A DNA stretch of 64,000 nt from Octopus sinensis (GCF_006345805.1 NC_043023.1:19902001-19966000); one strand, 5' to 3'; positions 1-32,457 are shown, counted from the first letter of the stretch. Program-made: numbers and translations. The notes: generated from the sequence alone by a model not told the origin.

Positions 1-91
1 TATATATATATATATAATATAAATGTGTGAGTATGTATGTATGTATATATATATATATATATATATAAATATAAATGTGTGAGTATGTATG

Positions 92-128
<37 letters not shown>

Positions 129-506
129 CAGTAAAAGCAATTAAGATTCAAGTGAGTTCTATTGAATTCACTTAAATGCAGTACTTAACTTAGATGCACC
201 AGAAAACTGTAGGGTATTATATATTTACCTAAATATATATATATATATATTTCTACATACAAAATTTAAAGGGCTGACCACTAAAAATGTACCGTCAACA
301 TGCTAGATATAGACGTCAAATCGCTATTTTCCACAAAGAATATGTTCTCAAATATAATGACAGAACATGCTAACGAGATTACAGTTTATCCTTGCGGATA
401 ATAATAATCAAAACTGATTCAGTACATGGGTAACTCATTTTTATTTCGTATATTTTCATTTGTCTTGCTTATTTTTAACGCTTTGGTATTGTGCTGAGTT
501 TTTATT
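1..506. repeat. Direct duplicate of ~19940-20413 (AT-rich, includes left arm of a fold-back element)
   Basis: Near-identical sequence from 'tattcagtaaaagcaattaagattc' through 'gctgagtttttatt' at both places; the copies diverge after 506/20413. Confidence 0.95.
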
Positions 507-538
507 GGGACAAGTCCTTCAAGGATCTTCCAGATGTA
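505..538 (-). pseudogene. LINE RT fragment, distal piece (YIWKILEGLVP) split off by the Tc1 insertion
   Basis: Minus-strand translation continues the ...RQERYAII/Y reading frame of 2179-2857 across the TA target duplication. Confidence 0.85.
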
Positions 539-2178
539 CACTTGCGTCGGAAATTAATTAGCACTTCTCAAATTTCTACATTTTCTTACATTTTCTTAAT
601 TTAATTAACTTATTATCAGAAACGAACTCGTTTATAATCAAAAATTTATTAAAACATATCCCAGCACACCACATAATTGTTATTAATCGTGAAATTTAGT
701 CAATATCTTGTTGCTCCTCCTTTGGCAGCAATGACAGCTGCTACGCGGGTCGGCATGCTGTCTATGAGTGCCTGCAGGTACTGTGCAGGGATGGCCCTCC
801 ATGCAGCAAGAAGTGCCCCAAACAGCTAGTGTCGGTTCAGGTCAGGTGACTGGCCAGGCCTGTCCATGACTGTCACCCCATGGTCCTTGAAGAAACCGGT
901 TGTGAGCTTGGCTGTGTGGGAAGGCACGTTGTCCTGTTGGAGCACGTACTCCTCGCCACCAAAGAGGTATCCCGTATTATCTCAACGCACTTTGCTGCGT
1001 TGATGTTGCCTTCGACGGCATAGAACCGCCCAACACCACTGTAGCTGAACGCCCCTCACACCATCAGACCACCCCCACTATGCTTCATGGTGAGAGCAAT
1101 GCAGTCTTTGTTGAAGCACTCACCCCTGCGGCGTCGCACATGGACAGGCTTGTCACTGACGAGACTGAATCGCGACTCGTCAGTGAACATCACTGTCCAC
1201 CACTGCTGCACGGTCCATGTCTTGTGGGCACGGGCCCAGAGCAGCCGCCTCTTCCAGTTTTGGGCTGTAAGGAGCGGCCCTACAGGATTTTAGACCAGCT
1301 TCCAGTAATCTGGTCTTGACGGTGGTTGTAGACAACTGCTTCCCTGTCATCTTTTGCATCTCCTCCGCCAGTTGCTGGCTCGTTGCCCTTCGGTTGTACA
1401 GCGACTTTCGGATCAGCATCCGGTCCTCCCGCTGGGTCGTCAGCCTCTTCCGTCCCCTACCCTTTTTGTCAGCTGCTGATCCAGTTTCCTCGTATTTCTT
1501 AAATAAGCACTGAATTGTGCGCCTGGCTACACCAAGTTTTCTGGCTATTGCAGCCTCCGACAGCTTCCCACGCCACGAGAGAGCCTCGTACCATCTCTCC
1601 AAGGTCATGCGAGGTCTTGGGCCTATCTAGGAATGAACGATAAAAACCAGTTATTTTCATTAAAACTATTCATTTGAATAATGTTATGCTATAACAAAAC
1701 TGCTATGAGTTATTATTCATTAAACAAAAAAGAAAGAAAGCAGAATTTCTCACCTTATTTGATGTATAACAGAAAGTTTTGTGAACCAGAAGTGACGTCA
1801 TCAAGCAGAGTGTAGGAGAATTTGTGAGGAAAAAAAATCTTGCAAATACACAAATCATTTAACCTACGAGCTGTTCAAAATGTCTTACGCGATGAGAAAA
1901 CTTAGTACGGTGTGATTTCGGTCCTTGCGAGGCGCTACCTATATCTATTAAACAAAGGAAGATTTGTCTGCATCCGCACTCCAAGTTGTTGTTGCACTGC
2001 TATGTCAACATCATTAGGCTGTAGACTCTCAAACTGCTCTGCAAACAAAGTTACGTCATCGTTCTGCGCAACAGTGAACTCACAACAAAGCAATAGTTCG
2101 AGATATGGCCACTAGGTGACAGCAAATACCTTGAGTGAAGAGAAAATCAAGGGTGCTAATTAATTTCTGACGGTAGTG
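539..2178 (-). mobile_element. Tc1-family DNA transposon, full length, defective
   Basis: 26-bp TIRs at 539-564 (cacttgcgtcggaaattaattagcac) and 2153-2178 (gtgctaattaatttctgacggtagtg); TA on both sides (537-538, 2179-2180). Confidence 0.93.
700..1626 (-). pseudogene. Tc1 transposase pseudogene (frameshifts, stops, internal deletion)
   Basis: HTH region with GRKR motif (ORF 1180-1608); other frames give VMFTDESRF, LQQDNVPSH, PGQSPDLN and the C-terminal SMPTRVAAVIAAKGGATRY*. Confidence 0.9.
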
Positions 2179-2857
2179 TATATTATGGCATATCTTTCTT
2201 GCCTACGCTCCAAGGAATAGAGCTTTAATCTCTTGAGTCTTTCCCAGTAGCTTACATTCTGCACAGAGGTTATCTTCTTCGTGTAGCTACGTTGGATCGC
2301 CTCAAGTTCTGTGATCAACTTGACACTGGATGGTGACCATAGCTGAGAGCAATAGTCAAAGTGGCTTAGGACAAGTGTCTTCCAGAGGACCATCATGGTT
2401 TCTTGTTCTCTTGTTCTAAAGGTTCTAAGAATCCATCCGGCCAGTTGTCTATATTTCATTGCCAATTTAGCAACATGTACACGAAAGGTTGCGTCATCAC
2501 TCATGTAAATACCCAGGTCACGCACTGATTGTGCCTCTGGGATTGCTATTCCTCTGGGTCCAGTGTATTCATTGGGTATTGCATTTAGTTTTGCATGCTG
2601 ATAGTATAAAGCTTGAAACTTTTCAGCATTGAACTGCATGCTATTCTTTTCAGCCCACTTGTATATTTTGTCCAGCTCACATTGCAGGCGTTTAGTGTCC
2701 TCAGGGTTCTGTATTGCCTGTGAAACTTTTGTATCATCTGCATAACTTGTGATTGTGGCTCTCTGTGTGGCTGAGGGCATGTCTGAGAGGGCCATTATGA
2801 ACAGTAGTGGTCCCAAAACAGTGCCCTGTGGAACACCGCTCACTGTTTGCGTGTTAA
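2179..2857 (-). pseudogene. Non-LTR retrotransposon (CR1/Jockey-group-like) reverse transcriptase fragment
   Basis: SGVPQGTVLGPLLF, SYADDTK, MQFNAEKF, RDLGI, DYCSQLWSP and LYSLERR motifs. Confidence 0.93.
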
Positions 2858-2903
2858 ATAGTTACTCCCGCCGTTTACCCGCGCTTGGTTGAATTTCTTC
2901 ACT

Positions 2904-2935
<32 letters not shown>

Positions 2936-4719
2936 CGCGTCTGTGCGGCTCGGCCGGCTACGCGATGCTCTGTTTTAATTAGACAGTCGGATTCCCCCGG
3001 TCCGTACCAGTTCCGAGTCGACCGTTCGCCGCCGGCCGAACGCCTGTCGCGCGACGACGACCGACCCCTTGCGGAGCCGAGCCGTGCGCGCACGGACGCG
3101 ACGGCGAGCCCGAAGCCGTGTCGCTCCACGGCGTCCCGTGTGTGGAATCGTTTTGTTCGCGCCCACTACGCCCCGGGCGCCCCGTATGAAACCGAGCCAC
3201 CGCAACGAACGACGGCCTGCGCACGTGCCGACGCACGAGAAGGCCACGCGCGCGGATCTGGCAGCCGCAACGACGTCCCAGCAACGCGCGCTCTTTCCGG
3301 ACCGAGAGGTCCGTAGGCGGCGGCACGCGACAGAACGCAGCGCAGCGGAGGGAGAGAACGCGTGCGTAGAAGCCGACCCGCGTTGACCGAAGGCGCGACC
3401 GCGCATCGGGGCGAAGCGGGTTGCCCGCCAACGCAGCGACGACCGTCGGAAAAATGGGGCGCACCGGGATGCCGAGTCCGACGCCAACGCTACAGCCCTG
3501 TACCGGTCCGCCGCTTCGCGTGAAGACGTGTTCCGGCGCCCGACCGACTCGGTCCTCGGAGCCAATCCTTCTTCCGAAGGTACGGATCCATTTTGCCGAC
3601 TTCCCTTACCTACATTGGCGCTATCGACAAGAGGCTGTATACCTTGGAGACCTGCTGCGGATGGTGGGTACGGACCGACTCGAGAGCTGCGATTCGTTAC
3701 GGACCCGGATTTTCCAGGGTCGCCGAGAGCGCACCGGACGCCGCCCGAGACGCGGCGCTCTACAAGTACCATATCCGTATCTCCGGACGAGCCGATTCCA
3801 CGGACGCGGTCCTTTACGAAGAAGAGAGAACTCTTCCCGGGGCTCCCGGCAACGTCTCCGGGCTCGCTTGCGTTGCCGCTGCTTCGCCGGCCGCCGGCTT
3901 CGACGACGGACGCGCTGCTAGGAAGAGCATGCCGCGTTCCCACCGACGGACGGGCACTCTCCGAGTTCGGGTTCGGGAATATTAACCCGATTCCCTTTCG
4001 ATGCGAGGCCGGCCGCGTAACTTACGTCGAACTATGGGAGTAGTACTTGTTTTCTAACGACGGATCCGGCGCCTTTCGTGGAAGCTTTCGCCCGCTTCTT
4101 AGGACCGATTGACCCGTGCTCGACCACCGTTGGCACGGAACCCTTCTCCACTTCGGTCTTCGAAGGTCTCGTTCGAATATTTGCTACTACCACCGAGATC
4201 TGCACCCGCGGTCGGCTTCACCCGGGCTCGCGCCCGCGGCTTCCATGCACGCCGCGGCGCCCTCCTACTCGACCGGGCATCGGAAAGTCGCCTCGCCGGC
4301 GATCGCGCAACCTGTCGCCCGGCCGGTCCGGCATCGGTCGCTCGCTCCAGCGCCATCCATTTTCGGGGCCGGTCGATTCGGCAGGTAAGTTGTTACACAC
4401 TCCTGAGCGGATTCCGACTTCCGTGGCCACCATCCTGCAGTCTATATCGACCGACACCCTTTCGGGGATCTAATGGGTGAAGCGTAGGGCACCTTAGCCG
4501 GACGTTCGGTTCATCCCACATCACCAGTTCTGCTTACCAAAAGTGGCCCACTTGGCACCGTGCATTCGTCGTCGCATAACGGCGGCCGCCTCCGATCGGG
4601 AGAGGAGCGGCCCGTTTCGCCCGTTCCGAGTTCGACAGTAGATCGAGGCCGTCAACGTCCCCGGGGCCTCCAGTCGTTCGCTTTACCGGACGGAATTGCG
4701 TGTCATTCTCCCGCTGGCG

Positions 4720-4762
<43 letters not shown>

Positions 4763-6002
4763 CGGCTCGATTGGTCTTTCGCCCCTACACCCGGTTCCGA
4801 TGATCGATTTGCACGTCAGAGGCGCTTCGGACTTCCACCAGAGTTTCCTCTGGCTTCGTCCCGACCGGGCGTGGATCGCCATCTTTCGGGTCCCCGGCCG
4901 CCTGCTACACCTGAGTCAGAGCGCCGTCTCGCTTTCGCTGTGCCGTCGGAGTTCGCGAAGTGAAAGGCTCCAACGACTCGCAGTCGACTGGGACTCCTCG
5001 GTCCGTGTTTCAAGACGGGTCGGGTAGGTTGCCGATGCTCGTCGCTGACCGGCAGCAGCGGGCGGCTTTTCGGGCGGGGTGTACGGCGACCGCAACGCGC
5101 GTCGCCCCCTTGCGAGGGTTCCGCGCAGTCGCGGCGCGCGGGCGGCCGCGTCGCTCACGACCTCCGAAGAGGCCGCGCGCGACTCGCTGCGTCGTTCGTG
5201 CTAAGGGCGAGGTGCGTTTGCCCGTCTCCGTCGGTTAGCCGTGCCTGCGCTTTACGTGGAGCGACGGGCCCGGTCGAGAAGAGCGCGTGGATCCCACCGA
5301 CCGCCGCTTGCGCGGCAGCGACGGGGCTCTCGTCTGCGACCTGCGGACGCCGCGCGCCTACCGGCCCGACGGGAAACGAGTCGCGACGACGGATCGGAGG
5401 GGAAGTGCGTCCGATGCCGGCGCCCCGGAAATCGAACGCCGACGAGGCGGCAGACCTCCGCCCGCGGAACGAGCGGCCGCCACCGGCGCGTTCGTCGACG
5501 ACGACGGCGCCTCGGCGGGAAGCAGCGGACTGAGTCGCCTCGCGATCGCGGTGAGCGGTCCTACCCGTTTACCCCTGGGCGGTTTCACGGTCTCTTGAAC
5601 TCTCTCTCCAAAGTTCTTTTCAACTTTCCCTCGCGGTACTTGTCGGCTATCGGGACTCGTCCCCGTATTTAGCCTTGATGGAGCTTACCACCCGCTTTGA
5701 CTGCGTTCCCAAGCAACCCGACTCTCGGGCCGATGAACACCGCCGATCGCCGCCGGCTCCGAATGGGCCTGGCACCCGCTCTGGGCAGCCCCGATCGAGG
5801 GGACTCCGAACCTAGCCGGGCGAAACGATCGACCGTGTACGACCCTTGCGCCACAGCTCTCGACGACCGTTGCGACCGACGAGATTCGGCGTTGGGCTTC
5901 TCCCGGTTCACTCGCCGTTACTTAGGGAATCCCGGTTGGTTTCTTTTCCTCCGCTTAGCGATATGCTTAAGTTCGGCGGGTAATCGCGTCCGAGTCGAGG
6001 GC
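2858..6002 (-). rRNA. 28S: 28S rRNA, 5' part, ending 13 nt upstream of the R2 insertion site
   Basis: Conserved LSU blocks, e.g. antisense tcctccgcttagcgatatgcttaag, ggtccgtgtttcaagacggg and ...atagttactcccgccgtttacccgcgc at the truncation. 5' boundary approximate. Confidence 0.97.
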
Positions 6003-6496
6003 AGCGTGAAAAAAAAGGAAGAGTTCCCCGCTGCAAAAGAGACGGCTGCCGCAGCTTGCTACCGGCGCACCACCGCTGTCGATCGGCACGAACGCTCGCA
6101 CGAAAGAGATATTCCCACAGAGCGAACGCCGAAAGACGAGACGGCGGCGGCGGCGGCAGCGGCGGCGGCGGCAGCGACGGCGACGGAGGGCGGCGGTTGC
6201 TCGGAGGGGAACGTAGAGGAGGACGCGGACGGGACGAGGGGCCTCGCCGTGTCGCCGCCGTTGTCGTTCCTGCTACTGATCATCCTTACTCCTCTGCTTC
6301 CGCTCGTCGGCGGGCTCCCTCCTCCGCAACAGCGCTTCGCAACGATGACGGTCTGGCATTACGGGAGACGGACGATCGAGCGGCGGCGGCACGCGCGCGA
6401 GATAATGCGGGCCTCGCGGCGAGCGCCGCCCTTTCCTGCGACTCCCGACTCCCCGCCGCAGCCAACGGCCGCGGCGGACTGCGTTTTCGTGTCTTG
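6003..6496 (-). other. ITS2
   Basis: GC-rich spacer between 5.8S and 28S. Confidence 0.85.
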
Positions 6497-6658
6497 ACCG
6501 CCTCTCGACCAGACGGGGCCCCGGGACGATAGGATCCCGGGGCCGCAATGTGCGTTCGAGGTGTCGATGTTCACTGAGTCCTGCAATTCGCATCAGTTCA
6601 CGCGGATAGCCGCGCTCTTCATCGACGGACGAGCCGAGTGATCCCCCGTCCAGGGTTT
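6497..6658 (-). rRNA. 5.8S: 5.8S rRNA
   Basis: Antisense ggccgcaatgtgcgttcgag...cctgcaattc...ctcttcatcgac...gagccgagtgatcc. Ends approximate. Confidence 0.95.
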
Positions 6659-7086
6659 CGGTATATTTGCTACTACTACTACATGCTACACGTACAGAAA
6701 AAGGAAAGCGGCAGCGGCCCCCGACAGGAGGCCGCCGCCGCGCGACGGAAAAATTAAAATAAAATTCGTAGGCGTCGACAGCGGAACGAAGCGCGCCACT
6801 GCCGACGCCAACGGCGAGGTAGGAAGGAAGAGAGAAATGGTCATGGAGCTCGCAAAGCGTGCAAGCCCGCGTCGTCCGAGCGCCATGAGGCGGGGCCGAC
6901 GGCCGGCAGGTGGTGCGCGGTCGGCAGCAGAGAGTGCGGCGTGTCGGCGGGCTGCCGCGACTGCTACTGCTGCGCTGTTAGAGGGCCGAAACAAGAGCAT
7001 TCGGTGGTACTCGGGCGAGGGGGCCCGGCCGCGACTTGAAGAAATTGGGCGGATCGCAAGTTTGCGTTTTCGAAAGAAGACGGCGC
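6659..7086 (-). other. ITS1
   Basis: Spacer between 18S 3' end and 5.8S. Confidence 0.85.
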
Positions 7087-7144
<58 letters not shown>

Positions 7145-7358
7145 AGCGATCGGGTTCGGTCGTCTTCTCCGGGCCATCAGAGAACGCGCCGACGACGGCG
7201 CGGAACGCCGACGACGGCGCGGAACGCCGACGACGGCGCGGAACGCCGACGACGGCGCGGAACGCCGACGACGGCGCGGAATGCCGACGACGGCGCGGAA
7301 CGCCGCCGCGCGTAAGCGGACTCGTCGGCCAGATCCGAGGACCTCACCGGACCGTTCG

Positions 7359-7401
<43 letters not shown>

Positions 7402-8071
7402 GATCGACGCGGGCTGATGACCGCGCCTACCGGGATTCCTCGTTCACGGGGTTGTTCCAGGCCCCGATCCCTATCACGGGAGGTGGTTCAGAGGTTCCCG
7501 ACCCTCTCGGGCCGGGGGAGACGCGCCCGCTGATACCTCCAGAGTAGCGCGCGTGCAGCCCCGGACATCTAAGGCATCACAGACCTGTTATCGCCCCGCC
7601 TCGTGCGGCTTTCTGCCGCCCGTCCCTCTAAGAAGCGCTGCGTTCGCCAACCGACTGGCCCGACGCGACGGCGTGCCGCCGCCGGGCTCGCGCGGGCCGA
7701 GCCGACGGGTCACCGCCGCCGCTCCGCACCGACGCCGCAACCACGCCGCGACGGCCCCCGCGAGGGGGACGGCAGCCGACGCGGCCGCGCAGCGCCGGAC
7801 GCGAAGGAGAGCGGCGGCAACGGCAAGCCCGGGCCGCGCGCGGAGCTACCGACGACGGCTTCGGCTCCGCCGCGCTACCGGAAAAGCACTAATCGACGCG
7901 CTAATTAGCAGGCCGGAGTCTCGTTCGTTATCGGAATCAACCAGACGGATCCTCCACCAACTAAGAATGGCCAGCACCCACCACCCACCGAATCGAGAAA
8001 GAGCTATCGATCTGTCAATCCTACCGTGTCCGGACCGGGTGAGTTTTCCGTGTTGAGTCAAATTAAGCCGC

Positions 8072-8115
<44 letters not shown>

Positions 8116-9736
8116 CTGTTTTGCAACCATACTCCCCCCGGAACCGACTATGGTTTCCCGCGCAGGCTCCCCGCCGGGTCATCGAAGCGAACGCCGGCAG
8201 AGCGCCAGTCGGCATCGTTTACGGTCGGAACTACGACGGTATCTGATCGTCTTCGAACCTCCGACTTTCGCTCTTGATCGAGGAAAACGTGCTTGCCACA
8301 CGCCGTCGCTGCAGTGCGTCTTGCGACGATCCAAGAATTTCACCTCTAACGTCGCAATACGAGTGGCCCGATCGCTCCCTTCGATCATTGCCTCGTCGTG
8401 AACGGAGACCGACGGATGACGCGCGGACGAGGCCATTTTCCATCATTCCATGCTTTTCGTATGCAAGCCGGCGGGGCTCGCTCTGAGCACTCTAATTTTT
8501 TCACAGTGAACGTACCGGCCGCCTCGGACACTCGGCGAAGAGCACCCTCGGAGGAACCGTGCGGGCCGAAACGACCGGGAGGTGGACGCGCTACTACCGC
8601 TAGAACGCGAACGGCGACGACGCCCAATAGCGCACCCGCCTCGTGGCTCCCGCGCGCGCCTGACCGACCCGCACCGTTGAAGGCGCAGGCGTGAAACCGG
8701 ACGCGACGCGGCGCGGGCGAAGACGAGCGCTGGACGGGGTGCCGAGTCGCGAATAGGGCCGGGAGTGCGAACGGACGACCGAAGCGGACGCGCCAGAAGC
8801 GCGCCTGCGACGGCGCCGTCGCCCCGAACGTGCTGGGGCACGTTTTCGAGACCCGAATTCCGACTACGAGCTTTTCAAACGCAACAATTTTAATATACGC
8901 TACCGGAGCTGGAATTACCGCGGCTGCTGGCACCAGACTTGCCCTCCGGTCGATTCTCGTTAACGGATTTGAAGTGTACTCATTCCGATCGCGGGGCCTC
9001 GACAGAGTCCCGCGTCGTTATTTTTCGTCACTACCTCCCCGTGCCGGGAGTGGGTAATTTGCGCGCCTGCTGTCTTCCTTGGATGTGGCAGCCGTTTCGC
9101 ATGCTCCCTCTCCGGAATCGAACCCTGATTCCCCGTTACCCGTTGCCACCACGGTCGGCACTGACCGGGCCGTCGACAGTTGATAGGGCGGACTCGCGGG
9201 GGACCCGTCGCGCGAAGGCTAGTGCGATACTAGCCCGTGCGATCGTACTGACAGTTATCCAGAGTCACCAAAATCGAAGGGCGTGAAGCCGCCGCACGCC
9301 TAAGACCCGCGCGCGGAAGGCGCGGGGCGCGGTGCGACGGCCCGTACGCGTAGGTCTCAGTCTAATATTTGCGCCGCGACCAATGCGGAAGGCCGACCGT
9401 ATCGTCGCGACCGGGAGGGACGGGCGCGGATGCGCCGCCCCCGAACCGGCCGAGCGGACGCCGGCGGCGAACGACGGCGAAGACGCGACGGCTGCCGAAC
9501 GCCGTTTTCGAGCCCGACACCCGGGTGCGACGTGCGATCGCGGCTTCGGTTGCATGTATTAGCTCTAGAATTGCCACAGTTATCCACTCTCCTCGCGGTG
9601 GAAGAATACGGTCCCGAGGATTAGGTCCGGTTCCTGAGCCATTCGCGGTTTCACCATTCGTTTACGGCATGAACTTACACTTGCATGGCTTAAGCTTTGA
9701 GACAAGCATATGACTACTGGCAGGATCAACCAGGTA
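7087..9736 (-). rRNA. 18S: 18S rRNA, unusually long (~2650 nt) with large GC-rich expansion segments
   Basis: 5' end TACCTGGTTGATCCTGCCAG at 9736; 3' end CTGCGGAAGGATCATTA at 7087; universal blocks gacgggcggtgtgtac and attaccgcggctgctgg present. Confidence 0.98.
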
Positions 9737-11049
9737 TCACCGACGTACGTTTCGAGAGAACGATGCGCGGCGGCGGCGGAAGCTCGGGAAGCAGCGCCGA
9801 CGATCGGAAACGAAAACGAGAACGAAAGGAATCGGAGGGGCCGAAAACAGGGGCACGGGCGCTCACGAGTTCGGCCGCCGTTCGTATACGCGCGCGCCTC
9901 CTCCCCGAGGAGGAAAAGAGGCGAAAACAACACGAGTCGACGCGCGAAGAAGCGTTCGCGGAGCAAAAGCGGTTTGCGATCCGACTGCCGCACACCGGGG
10001 CCGCTGCGGACGGGCTCCGGTGCGGGTCGATTTGAAGTGGGGCCGGTTACGGGCGGAAGAGGAGGAGAAGGCGAAGAAGGCCAGCGACTAGGTCGGCAGA
10101 CGAGAGGGGCAGCGGCGATTGGCGCGGGCCCGCTGCAGCTTTTAGACTCGCCCGGCGCCCTATGCGTCGGTGGTCGTCGTCGCTTCCTCCACCTGATCCT
10201 TTCGAAACGGCTGCGACGAACTGCGTCCGGACTGCGGTCAACGAGCGAATGCCATGACGGTGGTCGCCACGAAAACGACGCGCGCCAAGGCGGGGTGATG
10301 CCGGGAAGGGAAAAAAAGCTGCAGAAACGCTACGAGGCAGCGAAACCCGGAGTTGAAGCCACGGTTCTGTCTAGGGAAGAAGGGGACAGACACGGCACCG
10401 CTCTCTTTCGGAGACGCCGCGTCGCCTGTGGGGGAACGGGAAGCGACGGCTAGCCCGTCCGCCGCGCCGGCGGCGACGCAACACGAGGTCAGCGGCGTAA
10501 CCTGACCGGGTCCTCGGCTGCGAAGACGAGGCCGGGGGTCGGAAGAAAAAAAAACGCGGTAACGAGAAGCGGTTCGATTGCGAGAGGACGAACCTGCGGG
10601 CGTGAAGAGGCGGGCAGACGCGGGCGTCGAGGGAGCGCGTATGAAAGACGGGCGGTGTGGCGGCGGCGGCAGACATTCGAGGACGCGCCAGCCTTCGCCC
10701 GCCTCCGGATGTTCGGAGGCGGGCGAAGGCGGGCGAAGGCGTGCGTCGAAAGGTGCGGGTAGAACGTAGCGTCTGATAGGCGGGCGTGAAGAAGCGGACG
10801 TCCAGAGGCGGGCGAAGGCGGATGAAGGCGAGCTTCAAAAGGCGGGCGAAGGCGGGCAAACGCGGGCGTCAACGGGCGGGCGAACGCAGCGTCTGAAAGG
10901 CGGGCGGTTCGGCGGCGGAAATTCGAGGACGCGCCGGCCGTGTAGAGTCGATCTTGCACCGGCAAACGGGGAGCTAACCGTCGTCAGAAAAGGAGCTACG
11001 AGGACATCCCTCCGAGACGGTAACCTATGCCGATCAACCACAACCCTAC
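9737..11049 (-). other. 5' external transcribed spacer
   Basis: Lies between the proximal copy of the repeated promoter-like block and the 18S 5' end; contains short ggcgggcgaa repeats. Start site inferred. Confidence 0.6.
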
Positions 11050-11150
11050 ATATTAGTCTGGAACCCCTTGGGGTGCGACGGTCACCTAGAGCGTGACTAT
11101 CCAGCCGGGGCCGATCCGTTTGCTTACGGTCCCAGCACCTCCTTACTCAC
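11040..11150 (-). promoter_or_regulatory. Putative Pol I gene promoter, duplicated upstream at ~11905-11990 and ~12675-12770 (spacer promoters)
   Basis: Block 'ccccttggggtgcgacggtcaccta' occurs three times. Homology breaks at a TATGTAGGG/TATTGAGGG-like motif on the minus strand, resembling rDNA initiation sites. Confidence 0.55.
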
Positions 11151-13130
11151 GGGTCGGACCACGTAGCTGTTTTTACCCGGTGCATATCGCCACGCACACC
11201 CGGCGACTGACGGCATCGATCGCGCCTACGTCCACGTGTACGTGGGCGAGAGCGCAAGTTTCGCTTAAGCTCCACTTCAGCCTCGCCGTAGCGCGGCGGA
11301 GCTGCGAGCGAAGGCGGTAGAAGGCGGGCGCATGCCCGCCACTATCGGCCGTTGCCTGCACTGGCCGCAGTTTGTCATCTTTCGGAAATTTACGGGACGG
11401 ACCACGTCGCCGTATCGAACGCCCGCACCTCGCGACATCGGTCGCGGCTACGTCCACGCTTACGTGGGCGAGACCGCCCGCTTAAGTTCGTGCTTTCGAT
11501 TTCACGCACGGTAGGGCGGCGGAGACGCGGGCGACCGGCGCAGGCCTTCCGCCGCTACCTCGTGCTAGCCGCAGTTTGTCATCTTTCGGTATTTTACGGG
11601 ACGGACCGCGTCGCCGTATCGACCGCGTGCATCTCGTGAACGCCTTCCGGCATCGGTGGCGGCTACGTCCACGCGTACGTGGACCATACGGCGAGCTTAG
11701 GTTCGTTCTTTGGATTTCGGGCACGGTAGCGCGGCGGAGGAACGGGCGACAGGCGCAGGCCTGCCGCCAACGTCCCCGCTGCGCGTGGACTAACGGAGAA
11801 AGCGAGGCGGCGCGAAGGCGGCGGCCACCCGCCGGGCTGACGTCGTCTTAGGCTAACGTCTCGGGCATCCTGCCGAACGGTCCCGGAGACATCCACCTGC
11901 TGACTGCAAGCCCTCAATATAGTCTTGACCCCCTTGGGGTGCGACGGTCACCTATCCAGTCGGGGCCGATCCGTTTGCTCACGGTCCGAGCACCTTCTCC
12001 TACTCACGGGTCGGACCACGTCGCTGTTTTTACCCGGTGCATATCGCCACGCACTCCCGGCGACTGACGGCATCGATCGCGCCTACGTCTACGTGTACGT
12101 GGGCGAGAGCGCAAGTTTAGCTTAAGGCGCGCTTCAGCCTCGCAATAGCGCGGCGGAGTCGCGGGCGAAGGCGGGCAGAGGCGCGGGCGAAGGCGGACGC
12201 AGGCCCGCCGCTATCGGCCGATACCTGCACTGGCCGCAGTTTGTCATCTTTCGGGAATTTACGGGACGGACCACGTAGCCGTATCGAACGCCTGTACCTC
12301 GCAACATCGGTCGCGGCTACGTCCACGCGTACGTGGGCGATACCGCTCGCTTAGTTTCGTGCTCTCGATTTCACGCACGGTAGGGCAGCGGAGACTCGGG
12401 CGACCGGCGCAGGCCTGGCGCAGGCCTGCCGCTACCTAGTGCTAGACGCAGTTTGTCATCTTTCGGGATTTTACGGGACGGACCACGTCGCCGTATCGAG
12501 CGCGGGTATCTCGTGAACGCCTTCCGGCATCGGTGGCGGCTACGTCCACGTGTACGTGGGCCATACCGCGGGCTTAGGTTCGTTCTTTCGATTTCGGGCA
12601 CGGTAGGGCGGCGGAGCAACGGGCGACCGGCGCAGGCCTTCCGAACGGTCCCGGAGACATCCACCTGCCGACTGCAAGCCCTCAATATAGTCTTGACCCC
12701 CTTGGGGTGCGACGGTCACCTAGAGCGTGACTATCCAGCCGGGGCCGACCCGTAAGCATACGGGTCTGATTCCTTCGACTTACGGGTCGGACCACGTCGC
12801 TCCATTTACCCGGTGCGTATCGCCACACGCCCACGGAGACTGACGCCATCGATCGCGCCTACGTCCACGTTGACGTGGGCGAGAGCCTGATGTTCGCTTC
12901 AGCCTCACTAGATCGGGCACGGCAGCGCGGCGGAGCTCCGCGCGACTGGCGCAGGCCCGCCAATACCTGCACTGGCCGCAGTTTGTCATCTTTCGGGAAT
13001 TCACGCGACGGACCACGTCGCCCCATCGACCGCGTGTATCTCGTGACATCCTTGCGGCATAGGTCGTGGCTACGTCCAGGTGCCCGTGGGCGACACCGCG
13101 AGCTTAGGTGCGTTCGTTCGATATACCAGG
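11050..13130. repeat. IGS subrepeats (~770-865 bp period; internal ~200 bp subunit)
   Basis: 'cgcagtttgtcatctttcgg...acggaccacgtcgcc' recurs at ~11367, 11570, 12236, 12447 and 12978. Confidence 0.85.
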
Positions 13131-13189
13131 CACGTGAAATCGCCGCTTCGATCGCGTCGATAACACACACTCGTGGTCTTCGTCGTAAC

Positions 13190-13422
13190 TCAGCTCTGCT
13201 ATCGCTAGACAGTAGTAAATAGGGACAGCGGGAATATCCTCGTCGCCTTCGATCCGTTCACCTTGAGAGAGTCGAAGTTACTCCCGCCGTTTACCCGCGC
13301 TCGATACCGAGAACTTCTTCAAGCCCGTACCCTCGGCTCTGCTTTCGCTAGACAGTAGACAGGGACACGCTCCTCGCCTTCGATCCGTTCACGCGGCGCC
13401 TCGCCAATCGGACGACGATGCC
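13190..13422 (-). repeat. Two degenerate copies of the 28S R2-target region within the 3'ETS/IGS
   Basis: 13276-13301 is identical to 2860-2885; 13320-13367 matches 15343-15390 at 43/48. Confidence 0.9.
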
Positions 13423-13874
13423 GAGAACTCGCCGCTTCGACAACCCGCACTCGCGGTGTCCGCCGCGTACTACTCAGACTCTGTCCGTCGCTGCGCGAGA
13501 CCGGGGCTCGGGCCCGATGCCGACGAGCAACAACTCGTCGGCGGTGCAGGAGGTTACGAACGGCCGGAATGCCGCATGCTGGCGCCACAACCCCGTGTAC
13601 GCGCGCACTAAGCAGGAGGTGCCGTTTCTTCCACTTCTCACTTAAACGAACCCGCAACGGAGCGCGCGCTGCTAAGCCGATGCGCGCTCGATTCGGCGGC
13701 CGAGACGAAGGCGGTTACGGCGACGACTACTACCGCGCGCCGAGTCGATCGCCGCAGACAAGACAAGACACAACGCAACGCAACACTTCGTAACTCCGAC
13801 TCCCAGCCGCAACACTTTCGCCATCTTTCGCACCTCCTCCTGCACCTGCTTCTCCGCCTCGAAGGGGCGGATCG

Positions 13875-14529
13875 TGTCATTCGCGAGAAGAGACTCAATA
13901 GATCGCAGTGTGGTAGCTGCTCTACTAAGCACGTCACTCCGAACGGCAAGTCGGGTCGTATGCAAGCGATCCCTTTCGTCTCGATCTCTTCAAACTAGTC
14001 GGGGCGGGACGACGAGCAGACGACTACGGCGCGAACGCCGCAGTCGCCGCCGCGTCCCCGAATGGCAATTCCGCCGGCGACGCTGCCGCTCGCCGCGCGA
14101 ACGCGACGGGCGGACGGCGAACGCGACGGGCGGACGGCGAACGCGACGGGCGGACGGCGAACGCGACGGGCGGACGGCGAACGCCGAGCTAAGGCATGCG
14201 CCTTGAGGTTGAGACGCTTTTGGAAAACAACTCGGGTCCGGCTACGGTTCCGGCTTAGAGGCGTTCAGCCGTTATCGCTCAGAGGCAGCCTGGCACCACC
14301 GCTCTATCGAGCGAGCGCGCAAACCGTTGCTCTGATCCCGCGGTACCTCTCGTACTGGACGGGATAGCCGTAGCCGAGTTGACGTTGCCGACGCCCGCCT
14401 AAGGTCGGCCGGAGAAACGCCGGCGGCACGGCCAGGACGGACGACGCGCGAGCGCGCCGCCGCCTCGACCGCACGCCGAGTACCCCGACGCGACTCGGGG
14501 CGCCGCGTACGCGCGATGCATCGGTAGGA

Positions 14530-14576
<47 letters not shown>

Positions 14577-15293
14577 GTTAGTGGGTGAACAATCCAACGC
14601 TTTGCGAATTCTGCTTCGCAATGATAGGAAGAGCCGACATCGAAGGATAAAAAAGCGACGTCGCTGCGAACGCTTGGCCGCCACAAGCCAGTTATCCCTG
14701 TGATAACTTTTCTGACACCTCTCGGCGGACGCATAGCTCGCCGCTGTAATTTGGAAAGGATCGATGGGCCACGCTTTCGCGGTCCGTATTCGTACTGAAA
14801 ATCGAGATCGAGCGAGCTTTTGCCCTTTTGCTCGACGTGTGGTTTCCGTCCACGCTGGGCTCGCCTTGGGACACCTGCGTTACCGTTTGACAGACGTACC
14901 GCCCCAGTCAAACTCCCCGACCGACACTGTTCTCGACTAAGGGTCGCGCATCGGCTGCGCCGGCGCCCGCAAAGGCGCCCGACATGCACCGCGCGCTTCG
15001 CACCAGATAATGAACCACCGCTCGGCGACGGCCCGATCCCTTCTCCATCGAGTGAGCGAGGAAACTACGGAAGTGGCGGTTTTTCATCGTCGCAAACGCG
15101 CGCGACACCCCGACGTCGAACGCGCTTAGCCGACGGCGCCCACGGCGCACCGACGAGACCGACCGCCGCACGCGAAGCGCGACGGTGCGGACAACGAACA
15201 GCACGCCAGCGCGCCGCCGGTGACGGCAGCGCCCGGCGCGGGGCAACGCGAATGCTACCGCCTATGCTACGCCTACCGTGTGCCCTCACAAAA

Positions 15294-15333
<40 letters not shown>

Positions 15334-15340
15334 CGATCCG

Positions 15341-15375
<35 letters not shown>

Positions 15376-15410
15376 CAGTAGATAGGGACAGTGGGAATCT
15401 CGTTGATCCG

Positions 15411-15450
<40 letters not shown>
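13875..15450 (-). rRNA. 28S: 28S rRNA, 3' part, starting exactly at the R2 site (TAGCCAAATGCCTCGTCATC)
   Basis: Peptidyl-transferase region blocks (gagccgacatcgaagg, ctcacgacggtctaaacccagctc) and 3'-terminal tcaatagatcgcag. 3' boundary approximate. Confidence 0.97.
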
Positions 15451-15726
15451 TCTAAGTGAGACTAAATAGTGTCTCCTTCCCTTTATTTAACGTGGGTGGT
15501 CCCACACTGTCCAGCCAGGTCCCAGCTTGTGTTAATCTTAAAAGAAAAAAAGTACAAAAAAAAACAAAAATCTACCTAAGTAGTGGGGATCTAAAACTAA
15601 CAGCGAAGCGGGTGCTTTTTCGATGGGCAGAAGAAGCTGAAAGTCCAATCCGGGTTGTTATTTTAATTTTTCTTATGTTTTAATTTTAAGCTCATATCGA
15701 GGCACGGCCCCCAAACCATGCCACCT

Positions 15727-15757
<31 letters not shown>

Positions 15758-17422
15758 ATTGAGGGGCATCCTACACGCCAGCCTCTCGGTCCTCGAAAAA
15801 AAAAAAAAAAAAAGAAATTTTGAGGACTTCATCGAGGGGGTTTTATGTGCAGGATCCGATAGAAACTATCAGGGTCGAGTTAGGTATGTGAGCCATTAGT
15901 ATTACCTGCAGTGTAAATGGCTCTATACAACTGCAGGAAGCGTTGATATCGGCCCAACGTGGTTGGGCAACACGCTCGGCCTGGCTTGGAGACCCGCTCT
16001 TTTGCCCACAAGCCACCATCTTATACGGCCCCTGGCAACCGTGTGTTTCGTAACTTTTCGTTAAGGAATTGGACTTCGCGGCATTTTCCAAGAGTACGTG
16101 GAAGAAAATCAAGAGTACAAGAGTAAGGAGTCAAACCCTGCAGACCGTAAGCAAACATCCTCCCTAGCCAACCGAAATCCGCATACCAAGCCAAATACCC
16201 TGCAACAGTCCGCGAAGGGCTCAATACTGATGGTTTACCCGTCAGTTTACCCGGCATCCTCGCCGCCCTTCTCGAGTGAGGTACTGGATGCTGGCCAAAA
16301 GTGAGTCTACTCCCACATTAACATGTGTGAGCCACAACAATCTGGCGTCAGGAGACAAAGTCGTGAACCACCCAGGGCTCATTATTGACGGTTTACCCGT
16401 CAGTTGACTGGCTCCCGTAGTGAGGCCAAAAGTGAGTCCACTCCCACATTAACATGTGTGAGCCACAACAATCTGGCGTCAGGAGACAATGTCGTGAACC
16501 ACCCAGGGCTCATTATTGACGGTTTACCCGTCAGTTGACTGGCTCCCGTAGTGAGGCCAAAAGTGAGTCCACTCCCACATTAACATGTGTGAGCCACAAC
16601 AATCTGGCGTCAGGAGACAATGTCGTGAGCCACCCAGGGACAGCAGGGACAGCAACCTTCACGAGGCGCTAACTTTTGGCGAGATAAGAGGCAGGATGGA
16701 AGCACCCCATCCCTACCTCGCCCCGTCAGCAGCCCAATCCGGAGAGCGAACCCACCCGTTCTGACCTTGGCCGTCCGTGGGCGCCGCCCCGTGAAATTCT
16801 AATATAGAAATAGGGGGCCTTCACACCACACCGATGCCAGGTAGTGGCCGATCCGGATGAGCAGGAGGCCGACAAGCGCAACCACGACCAACCAGCAGGG
16901 TATCATCCCACTCTGCACACGATAATCCTCCACACTGCTTGGTCCCCACCAATTAATTGGAACCGCTATGGGGGAAGGACACATTTAGTTAGTCTGCGGA
17001 CGGGTTGGCGCCCGCAAGGCCAATAACGGCTTGCGTCCCACCCGCAGACGTAAGCTCTTAAACCACGACAAGGTAGTGTCCCTGTGGGTGAATCCTGGCA
17101 GTGCATCCATCTCCCGGGTTAAACCCGGCAGATCATAACATACCAGACAAACTTGATGGTGCATCCACCCTCTCACCTCGCTGCCAATGTTCCAATCGGA
17201 CACTGCAGGTGTATATCCCCCTATACACCACCCACACCGATGTTCCTATAGGACACCGCAGGTGCCCCCAACCGCTGGATCTTTTCTGCCCCCAACGAAA
17301 CTCGGTGGGGTGGGGACAAATCGTATCAAGACGTGTTATTAGTGTAAGTTCACCCCAAGTGGATGAGCAGTAGGAACACCCACCCATTGCAAGGTTCGTG
17401 GGTCATAACCATCAAGCCCCAC
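15451..17422 (-). mobile_element. 5'-truncated, decayed R2-like retroelement (3' end with long structured 3' UTR)
   Basis: Its 3' junction lies precisely at the canonical R2 nick site of 28S. Fragmentary peptides (ARIH.., VPINWWG) only weakly recall the R2 C-terminus; no intact ORF. Confidence 0.65.
16294..16639. repeat. 131-bp tandem repeat, ~2.6 copies
   Basis: 'gccaaaagtgagtc..ctcccacattaacatgtg' starts at 16294, 16425 and 16556. Confidence 0.95.
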
Positions 17423-17426
17423 TTAA

Positions 17427-17497
17427 GGTGGCTACTACCACCTGACTTCTATCTTTCAGAAAGTCATGAAGCCATTCTCCCAGTTTTCCAACTATGC
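17427..17497 (-). pseudogene. LINE RT fragment, proximal piece (IVGKLGEWLHDFLKDRSQVVVA)
   Basis: Peptide type that normally lies just upstream of the SGVPQG motif found at 2843. Confidence 0.85.
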
Positions 17498-17641
17498 TAT
17501 ATATATATATAACTAATATATATATAACCAATAGCTAAATTCTTTGGCTGCTATTTCTAAAAGCTCGGTATGTGGTAAAGCAAATTATTTTTTGATGAAC
17601 CCTAATTATATAAAGTAATGTTTATATGTATATATATATAT

Positions 17642-17821
17642 TTATTTACTCTTTTACTTGTTTCAGTCATTTGACTGCGGCCGGGACTTTTTCTTTTGTA
17701 AGCCCAGTACTTATTCTATCGGTCTCTTTTGCCGAACCGCTAAGTAACACGGACATAAACACACCAGCATCGGTTGTCAAGCAATGCTAGGGGGACAAAC
17801 ACAGACACATAAACACACACA

Positions 17822-18679: not shown

Positions 18680-19135
18680 ACCACTCAAACGGTGATCCAG
18701 CATCGGTCCGCTCACCGCTGCCATCCGATGATACGAAAAAAACAATCAGTCTCCCGGGCGCCCGTTCATTCGACGAGGTGTAAACCATCGTCTGTTTAGG
18801 ATCAGCGATTCTGTTCGGAGAGACTTGCTTAAGAGAACAGCTACCACACTGCGGTGTGTTGCGTCTATTCTTGCGGAAGACATGATCCCGCATCGGAGGC
18901 GTGGTGTAGCTCGGTGTCAAGAACTTAGTATCATCCGACGACATCGGTGGCGTGAATCACTCGGGAAACGATCAAAACTGAACGGTGCCGGAAAAGATGG
19001 CTCTAAGCGCCAGAATATGCATCCTCTTGTTTCATGACGTCAAGATGTCTGTCTGTCGGTCTAAGTCTCTTTCGGAGTTTAAGCAAAGCTGGGGCATCCT
19101 CGCCGCCCTTCTCGAGTGAGGTACTGGATGCTGGC
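18680..19135 (+). pseudogene. Diverged 28S-derived mosaic fragment, inverted relative to the rDNA unit
   Basis: 18811-18853 matches the reverse complement of 13904-13946 at 37/43; shorter matches to other 28S regions. Confidence 0.6.
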
Positions 19136-19311: not shown

Positions 19312-19935
19312 CAGTCATGCAGGCAGACAGACAGACAGACATAGGAAGGGAAAGAGAGAAAGAGATTGAGAGAAATGAAGATAGCAAAGAGAGAGAGAGG
19401 GGGGGAGGAAGATAGAAAATGAGTAGAGATGGAGTAACAAGGGAGTGGTGTATATGATTAGCATAAAGAGGAGAGTATGAGGCAAGAGGCATAGTGAGAG
19501 GATATTATATGAGGCGGAGAGAAAAGAGAGATATTGATACATAGAGAGAGGGAGATACTGACGTGGGAGAGAAAACAAAAGAGGTAGAGGGATATTAGGA
19601 TATATAAGGTGGTAAAGAGGGAGAGAGTGAGAGAGAAAGGGGGAGAAGGAGAGAGAGGTGACGTATGATTTATATACTTTGTGGGAGAGGGAGTGTATCA
19701 GATTAGAGAGAGTAAGAGAAGCAGACAGGAGTTATACAGGAATGTATAAAGGAGTGAAAGGAAGAGAGAGAGAGAGATAAGTAGAGAAGCTTTGCTATAT
19801 ATATATAAATGTGTGTGTTTGAATGTGTTTGTGTGTGAATGTGTGTATTTGTGTAAATGTGTGTGTGTGTTTATGTATGTGTGTGTGTGTACGCAGAGAT
19901 TGTGATCGGTGATAGAAAACAAGAGAATTGGGGTG

Positions 19936-19966
<31 letters not shown>

Positions 19967-19990
19967 TAAATGTGTGAGTATGTATGTATG

Positions 19991-20036
<46 letters not shown>

Positions 20037-20153
20037 TCAGTAAAAGCAATTAAGATTCAAGTGAGTTCTATTGAATTCACTTAAATGCAGTACTTAACTT
20101 AGATGCACCAGAAAACTGTAGGGTATTATATATTTACCTAAATATATATATAT

Positions 20154-20517
20154 ATATTTCTACATACAAAATTTAAAGGGCTGACCACTAAAAATGTACC
20201 GTCAACATGCTAGATATAGACGTCAAATCGCTATTTTCCACAAAGAATATGTTCTCAAATATAATGACAGAACATGCTAACGAGATTACAGTTTATCCTT
20301 GCGGATAATAATAATCAAAACTGATTCAGTACATGGGTAACTCATTTTTATTTCGTATATTTTCATTTGTCTTGCTTATTTTTAACGCTTTGGTATTGTG
20401 CTGAGTTTTTATTTGAGAACATATTCTTTGTGGAAAATAGCGATTTGGTGTCTATATCTAGCATGTTGACGGTGCACTTTTAGTGGTCAGTCTTTTAAAT
20501 TTTGTATGTAGAAATAT
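20154..20517. repeat. Fold-back element with ~108-bp inverted arms
   Basis: 20154-20261 is the approximate reverse complement of 20410-20517. Confidence 0.9.
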
Positions 20518-32357: not shown

Positions 32358-32457
32358 NNNNNNNNNNNNNNNNNNNNNNNNNNNNNNNNNNNNNNNNNNN
32401 NNNNNNNNNNNNNNNNNNNNNNNNNNNNNNNNNNNNNNNNNNNNNNNNNNNNNNNNN
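32358..32457. other. Assembly gap (100 N)
   Basis: Seen directly. Confidence 1.

Follow-up and report, generated by a model that had tools for sequence, protein, structure and literature searches.

A nearly complete ribosomal DNA repeat, permuted beside the R2 target site and inserted in a LINE of Octopus sinensis, has R2-linked ends

A 64-kb stretch of the Octopus sinensis genome (NC_043023.1:19902001-19966000, in our numbering G000:C27:19902001-19966000, from an assembly of 2.72 Gb; hereafter the window, with positions counted from its first nucleotide) contains one nearly complete ribosomal DNA (rDNA) repeat, circularly permuted beside the 28S target of the R2 retrotransposon, inside a copy of a long interspersed nuclear element (LINE). 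The inserted block occupies 2858-17427 on the minus strand (14,570 bp) and reads in sense, from 17427, as a 1.97 kb element that is not rDNA, the 3´ part of 28S, the spacer, 18S, 5.8S, and the 5´ part of 28S up to 2858. Rfam models, used to locate the rRNA genes on the window (LSU, SSU, 5.8S, LSU), confirmed this minus-strand order, which had been proposed in an earlier description made without database searches (the sequence-only reading). Two further claims of that description also held: 28S is re-entered exactly at the R2 site (TAGCC, at 15450), and it stops just before the next R2 site, 13 nt short, at 2858. A 14.6 kb block had been placed at 2854..17426; the size is right, and the limits shift to those given here.

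Relative to the R2 site, the block starts at 28S position -7 and ends at position -14. Because copies of the element located in rDNA keep 28S up to TTAAG at their 5´ junction (L060 and L061; L070 has a one-base variant), we assign 17423-17427 to 28S positions -7 to -3, and the permutation therefore lacks only the 6 nt from -13 to -8. Apart from these missing bases, the repeat earlier called whole is near-complete: compared with other rDNA copies, its 28S is shorter near 4925 (100 versus 206 nt between anchors, one comparable copy), as are its ITS1 (internal transcribed spacer 1; 490 versus about 1210, two copies compared) and its spacer (2715 versus 4698, one copy compared), and it is longer at two small tandem repeats.

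The host LINE copy has its 3´ tail about 625 bp upstream of the window and, at its other end, is truncated 5´ at 17499, in (TA)n. As the sequence-only reading had noted, the LINE reverse transcriptase frame is present on both sides of the block. The suggested search for contiguous LINEs found that the 29 other copies retrieved with the left flank all run across the site uninterrupted (29/29), and the left and right pieces share their best-matching copies (L036, L039). At the block, 15 nt of LINE were lost and one G was gained at 17428, with no target duplication, which decides for deletion the question of duplication versus deletion that had been raised. TTAA is indeed found at 2854-2857 and 17423-17426, but it loses its force as an argument for insertion: the left one is native to the LINE, being found in all 29 other copies, and the right one is 28S sequence, part of the element's usual 5´ junction in rDNA copies (L060, L061). 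LINE-rDNA homology is absent at both block junctions, and block and LINE have the same sense. The junctions do not fit target-primed insertion into the LINE: the element's 3´ end is joined to 28S and not to the LINE at a nick, and the LINE borders 28S position -14 and the element's 5´ leader. Junctions resembling the left one gave 76 pattern matches against 86 in a control, the pattern being too short to inform.

The block also bears marks of residence at this locus. A 43-bp patch within the element, missing from the nine other element rows shown, is identical to flank 19093-19135; the sequence belongs originally to the flank, the C4 paralog of which has one base different, and its 27-nt core has two exact places genome-wide, both in this window, and one more with a mismatch. 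The patch is best explained by templated repair from local sequence once the block had arrived. In a comparison of 43 rDNA loci, some overlapping (the window and four contigs with distant rDNA stood outside this set), private substitutions of the unit number 43 in 3052 columns of the 5´ 28S (19 of CpG type), 14 in 2419 of 18S and 8 in 1507 of the 3´ 28S. The unit is thus decaying outside concerted evolution, and it has what defines an rDNA orphon: a position outside the array, flanks that are not rDNA and independent divergence. Together, LINE collinearity, the flank-derived patch and CpG-type decay make a misjoin unlikely, as the sequence-only reading had argued, and the block is probably a real, decaying rDNA orphon.

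What had been described as an R2-like 3´ end is instead a whole element with its own 5´ end (15451-17422), present at many other genomic places. It is non-coding, with a longest stop-free frame of 98 codons, and a tblastx comparison with the intact R2 on C18 (see below) found no protein likeness. Its 3´ end lies exactly at the 28S R2 site, and a 3´ motif at 15492-15505 is common to the element and autonomous R2. At the nucleotide level the element resembles the C18 R2 over 41 nt of the ribozyme core (80%) and 35 nt of the 3´ end (86%); both matches are short, with pairwise E about 1e-4. Judged by its sequence, the element would fall under the definition of SIDEs given in PMC3414825. Copies outside 28S likewise open with 28S-like bases at about -7 to -9 (L056, L066, L068, L011). 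The last 30 nt of the element (window:15451-15480; L071-L100) form a hairpin that resembles the helix in 28S immediately upstream of the R2 site, aligned by Rfam, with a stem sequence that differs among subfamilies. Outside 28S, head-to-tail tandems of the element occur at G000:C9332:61681-71842 (L057, L058), one joined via four 28S bases.

[quoted passage not shown] P1b covaries with the junction, four types from copies whose junctions are of 28S type pairing at 7/7 (L060, L061), 7/7 (L066, L070, L156), 6/7 (L161) and 7/7 (L167, L150, L173), and P3 changes on both strands between the element and R2. Among 19 cores, five have no scored junction, and five with lost or altered junctions pair at 2-5 of 7 positions (window: 5). 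A strict HDV descriptor gave no ribozyme match in the element, and an Rfam E-value scan of it gave no ribozyme family. The model predicts self-cleavage at -9 for the element and at -11 for R2, within the 9-36 nt upstream predicted for R2 ribozymes with upstream self-cleavage (PMC3774820).

An intact R2 open reading frame (ORF) of 1311 codons lies at G000:C18:17535690-17540340, as a single ORF in 28S at the R2 site; its best PDB match is an R2 protein (E=5e-158), and three zinc-finger motifs and an endonuclease motif were recognized by eye. A frameshifted R2 copy on C14 matches Pfam zf-C2H2 and RVT_1. Thirty loci were fetched out of 31 exact matches; the R2-type 3´ motif stands just before the R2 site in 24 of them, and one of the 30 R2-site loci is uninserted, rDNA being collapsed in the assembly. 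More R2-related families share the ribozyme core (L075, L080, L161, L166-L168), some lying 25-71 nt downstream of the R2 site or having a divergent ORF. Degenerate copies resembling the R2 target sit in the spacer of most rDNA copies (window:13189-13392; L133, L136, L139, L146, L148, L153), with varying target deletions, and at G000:C14:24965382 an element is inserted into one. It is possible that these spacer copies act as a decoy target.

The landing site is itself a nucleotide-precise, recurrent scar hotspot of the LINE family, newly seen here and absent from the sequence-only reading. In two sets of LINE copies chosen by flank only (of 39 fetched for the second, 4 did not span the site), multi-base lesions occur there in 7/29 copies and in 12/35 informative copies (19/64), that is, in about 30%; these counts are too few to call an age dependence. 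Indels of at least 3 nt affect 6 of 28 copies in the 50-nt bin holding the site and at most 3 in any other bin. Genome-wide, 102 shortened alleles stand against 255 exact intact copies, 89 of the 100 listed being at least 2 nt short by hand count; a control site of the same 4-nt repeat geometry, for which shortened alleles only were counted, gave 42, of which 41 were short by one base and 1 by two. The lesions are microhomology deletions and templated inserts extending both ways from one point, and one other copy (L118) has a 54-nt foreign insert there. Identical scar alleles recur in separate subfamilies and are polyphyletic (79 rows compared, 73 covered, 53 under 5% divergence used, two of these being one locus), and the LINE ends in the window correspond to the commonest allele. 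Repeated site-specific breaks followed by end-joining repair are expected to give such a pattern, and we infer that the scars record double-strand-break repair. LINE copies truncated at the site account for only 2 of 30 loci, so failed template jumps are not what the scars resemble. No resident transposon was seen there in two sets of 53 and 31 matches, from each of which 30 loci were fetched. Of the 53, about half have intact length and a substitution at the base beside the cut, and are possibly resistant alleles (LINE examples L022-L050, L101-L130, L181-L269). A likeness to the CCAAT-box consensus at the site gives no mechanism.

A real insertion with an R2 link at both ends is supported by these data. 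By simple arithmetic, roughly 0.1-0.2% of random openings of a 14.6 kb unit would lie as close as ~10 nt to the R2 site. The 5´ end of the block matches the element's predicted ribozyme-cut end, 2 nt inside the cut. As this start is upstream of the R2 nick, it cannot have arisen when a unit with the insertion already in place was cut again at the nick; given also the closeness to the predicted cut, a reverse transcript's end is the simplest reading of it. The 3´ end, which is 12-14 nt upstream of R2 cuts, resembles trimmed R2 5´ junctions, for which upstream-28S deletions and extra bases have been reported (PMC2718515); Drosophila R2 makes breaks in rDNA (PMC11700107). We lean, with somewhat better than even confidence, toward R2-dependent release of one rDNA unit, as a circle or through two adjacent cuts, followed by end joining into a LINE break. 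In such a sequence of events, R2 protein would have been inserting the non-coding element into this rDNA unit, without finishing, the element RNA would have been self-cleaved by its ribozyme at -9, and a cDNA end that failed to re-anneal to 28S would have become the block's 5´ end. The unit would have been freed either as a one-unit circle or by a cut at the R2 site of the next unit as well, the end at -14 may be a trimmed R2 cut end, and the linear unit would have been end-joined into a break at the LINE's recurrent scar site. Of the sequence-only proposal that R2 biology defines both ends and that R2 drove the mobilization, the link at both ends thus stands, and the release may have gone by DNA cutting or by read-through RNA.

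Several observations weigh against release by R2 cutting and end joining. It concerns a single event, and no one-unit circles were observed. The suggested scan for orphons with the same permutation turned up no further unit permuted in full, either at 50 exact upstream-motif places (30 read, 13 more added, the rest being the window's own two or mapped otherwise) or at 31 downstream-motif places; exact patterns overlook diverged copies, and true rDNA arrays are collapsed in the assembly. A-clade R2 binds upstream of its nick (PMC11204384), an arrangement with which the LINE cut is not aligned, and R2 was considered as the cutter of the LINE site and rejected, two partial target likenesses seen by eye both being out of register with the cut. 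On the separate matter of whether the insertion is real, eight short deletions in the unit's 18S, six of them in homopolymers, resemble read error. No contig bridging 17423-17429 was found among those listed from four public runs (right junction, contigs only, compared over 16650-17820); the best runs contain at most 0.46 of the words, and the contig tables are swamped by LINE and short interspersed element copies. Two runs contain low-depth short contigs identical to this element variant (X12 records 2 and 7, X4 record 27), which are not junction proof.

The remaining points against cutting and end joining speak for RNA. We regard it as a serious, though clearly less probable, alternative that an RNA polymerase I read-through transcript, cut at its 5´ end by the element's ribozyme and at its 3´ end by that of the next unit, was copied into cDNA over its full 14.6 kb and then captured, either at a LINE break or through template jumps during LINE insertion; R2 template jumps have been described (PMC3414825). 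The block ends lie 2-4 nt from predicted cuts (start at -7 versus a cut at -9; end at -14 versus a last base at -12 with R2 next door, or -10 with a SIDE), and these ends and the sense shared with the LINE fit an RNA route equally well. After nine of the 24 R2-type 3´ ends, the 28S that follows stops within only 35-994 nt. The orphon on C11 (G000:C11:55355747-55366608) begins at the element's 5´ end, by a LINE tail, and spans 10.9 kb into the next external transcribed spacer (ETS). Together with two other element-bearing orphons (C28:3161478-3169751 and C10:22947983-22958960), it ends just past the spacer repeats, at window-equivalent positions 10562, 10588 and about 10840, respectively; the 5´ ends differ, and three ends within ~280 nt resemble copying of read-through RNA. 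Yet this clustering comprises three cases noticed after the fact, the route requires a transcript that runs unprocessed through the spacer, promoter, ETS, both ITS and 28S, and few LINE copies are truncated at the landing site (the 2 of 30 above). The C11 and C28 orphon ends directly precede a T9 run.

It is improbable that R2 was uninvolved and that a generic break or recombination moving an element-bearing unit merely chanced beside its site. rDNA fragments with many different ends are scattered through the assembly, and ectopic recombination and circle integration are standing models, listed with transposition as rDNA-moving routes of which none has been studied in detail (PMC10257491, which judged R1 and R2 unlikely movers in its own species). 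Against such a route, both ends of the block are within 14 nt of the R2 site, and neither junction has the LINE-rDNA homology sought. Still less credit can be given to an assembly misjoin or chimeric read. Collapsed rDNA, with one uninserted R2-site locus in 30, the 18S deletions and the lack of a bridging contig among those listed would suit it, but the LINE is collinear to within 15 nt with shared best matches on both flanks, the patch is identical to this flank and unlike the C4 paralog, the 5´ 28S has its private CpG-type substitutions, and the nearest N gap is at 32358. Finally, TTAA at both ends and the 28S targeting of Pokey (PMC3849761) recall piggyBac/Pokey-type cut-and-paste with TTAA duplication, which we dismiss because the two TTAA are separately derived (LINE versus 28S), a duplication is contradicted by the intact LINE copies, 15 nt of LINE were lost, and self-comparison shows that the block ends are not inverted repeats.

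The spread of rDNA to new places in the chromosomes is a long-standing problem, to which this locus offers base-level ends pointing to R2. With hundreds of empty sites also at hand, such ends make the circle, adjacent-cut and read-through RNA routes testable. The locus also yields a SIDE family with a covarying predicted ribozyme outside insects, and it reveals a nucleotide-precise scar hotspot in a LINE family. We raise, as a tentative generalization that we consider rather doubtful, that export of rDNA by the R2 machinery is routine in this animal and extends to whole units with spacer and promoter, and that a sequence-specific nuclease keeps cutting one LINE position, together making a homology-free route for seeding rDNA. 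If routine export and site-specific cutting were true, hundreds of landing pads would exist in a young LINE family. The significance is bounded by one event, a decaying unit and no junction read seen (right-junction contigs listed from four runs).

Other features of the window are collected in Table 1. Its repeats, and the length and GC-richness of its rRNA genes, give a cephalopod-like impression. The host LINE copy, 1.2 kb long, carries three insertions: the rDNA block, the insertion at 539-2176, which we take to be a Tc1/mariner element, and one of ~750 bp (window 1-504 and ~243 bp upstream) that was copied from nearby flank 19738-20413 without target duplication. We presume, from the promoter consensus, that the TATA..GGG motifs of the spacer serve as RNA polymerase I promoters. 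In the right flank, 76 bp at window:18813-18888 are ~81% like the 28S 3´ end, inverted. A higher-order tandem array at window:32200-60300 consists of ~5-6 kb units of 107-bp, 63-bp and CA-rich repeats and includes a gap of 100 N at 32358-32457. Elsewhere in the assembly, four unplaced contigs (L169-L172; G000:C8697, C10266, C12603, C12762) carry rDNA only 75-85% like that of the block, without the element, and probably belong to another organism.

Table 1. Positions of the annotated features, given in window coordinates.
Feature	Position	Strand	Remarks
Host LINE, short piece between two older insertions	505-538	-	
Tc1/mariner-like insertion at TA in host LINE	539-2176	.	terminal inverted repeats
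Host LINE, RT-coding (reverse transcriptase) piece	2177-2857	-	RVT_1 E=1.6e-11; ends in the LINE's own TTAA (2854-2857)
28S 5´ part	2858-5980	-	to position -14 relative to R2 site; Rfam LSU 3626-5980 and 2870-2924
ITS2	5981-6498	-	
5.8S rRNA gene	6499-6657	-	Rfam, full model
ITS1	6658-7086	-	
18S rRNA gene	7087-9736	-	Rfam SSU, full model span
Spacer sub-repeats	11044-13134	-	each with TATA..GGG promoter-like motif (12689, 11921, 11055)
Degenerate copies of 28S R2-target region in spacer	13189-13392	-	
28S 3´ part	13869-15450	-	begins exactly at R2 site (TAGCC); Rfam LSU 13869-15339
Non-coding R2 derivative (SIDE type)	15451-17422	-	
43-bp patch within element	16253-16295	.	copied from local flank
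Predicted HDV-like ribozyme	16977-17427	-	P2/P3/L3/P1b core 17055-17082; J4/2 and P2b about 16977-16992; P1a 28S-derived, first two bases lost here
28S-derived 5´ leader of element	17423-17427	-	positions -7 to -3; 17428 is one extra base
Host LINE, 5´-most 71 bp	17429-17499	-	followed by (TA)n
Donor of 43-bp patch	19093-19135	.	in flank DNA 93.8% like G000:C4:164813200-164813990

Our literature search, which covered papers outside subscription, found no account of an ectopic locus that contains an entire rDNA unit permuted at the R2 site. Fragments of rDNA in transposable elements have been catalogued, though not whole units (PMC10946416), and mollusc R2s have been reported in a paper whose supplements may list a cephalopod R2 (PMC13188248). 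The closest parallels to the element are the R2 SIDEs of Drosophila (PMC3414825), which are likewise non-coding, sit at the R2 site of 28S, and have a 5´ HDV-like ribozyme and a 3´ end in common with autonomous R2. Those SIDEs are about 0.5 kb, whereas the octopus element is about 2 kb, with several subfamilies and many copies outside rDNA arrays; its P1 uses 28S sequence (predicted cut at -9) with a 340-nt J1/2, and here it heads a whole exported rDNA unit. In having a ribozyme built partly from 28S and a uniform 5´ junction in rDNA copies, the element resembles R2s with upstream self-cleavage (PMC3774820), although its 28S-derived leader here abuts a LINE end in place of upstream 28S.

The block as a whole is comparable to rDNA orphons and relocated rDNA (PMC10257491; PMC3622299), as a full transcription unit with spacer decaying at an ectopic site. 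Unlike those cases, its junctions are without homology or satellite, its ends lie at the R2 target, and both base-level junctions and empty sites are available. Pokey, a piggyBac element in Daphnia 28S, shares the TTAA near the R2 site, but the block has no terminal inverted repeats, target site duplication or transposase and is not a member of that group. With rDNA magnification in Drosophila (PMC11700107), the reading that we favour, R2-dependent release and end joining, shares breaks made by the R2 endonuclease at the 28S target; magnification ends in unequal exchange within the array, whereas here a unit would be exported.

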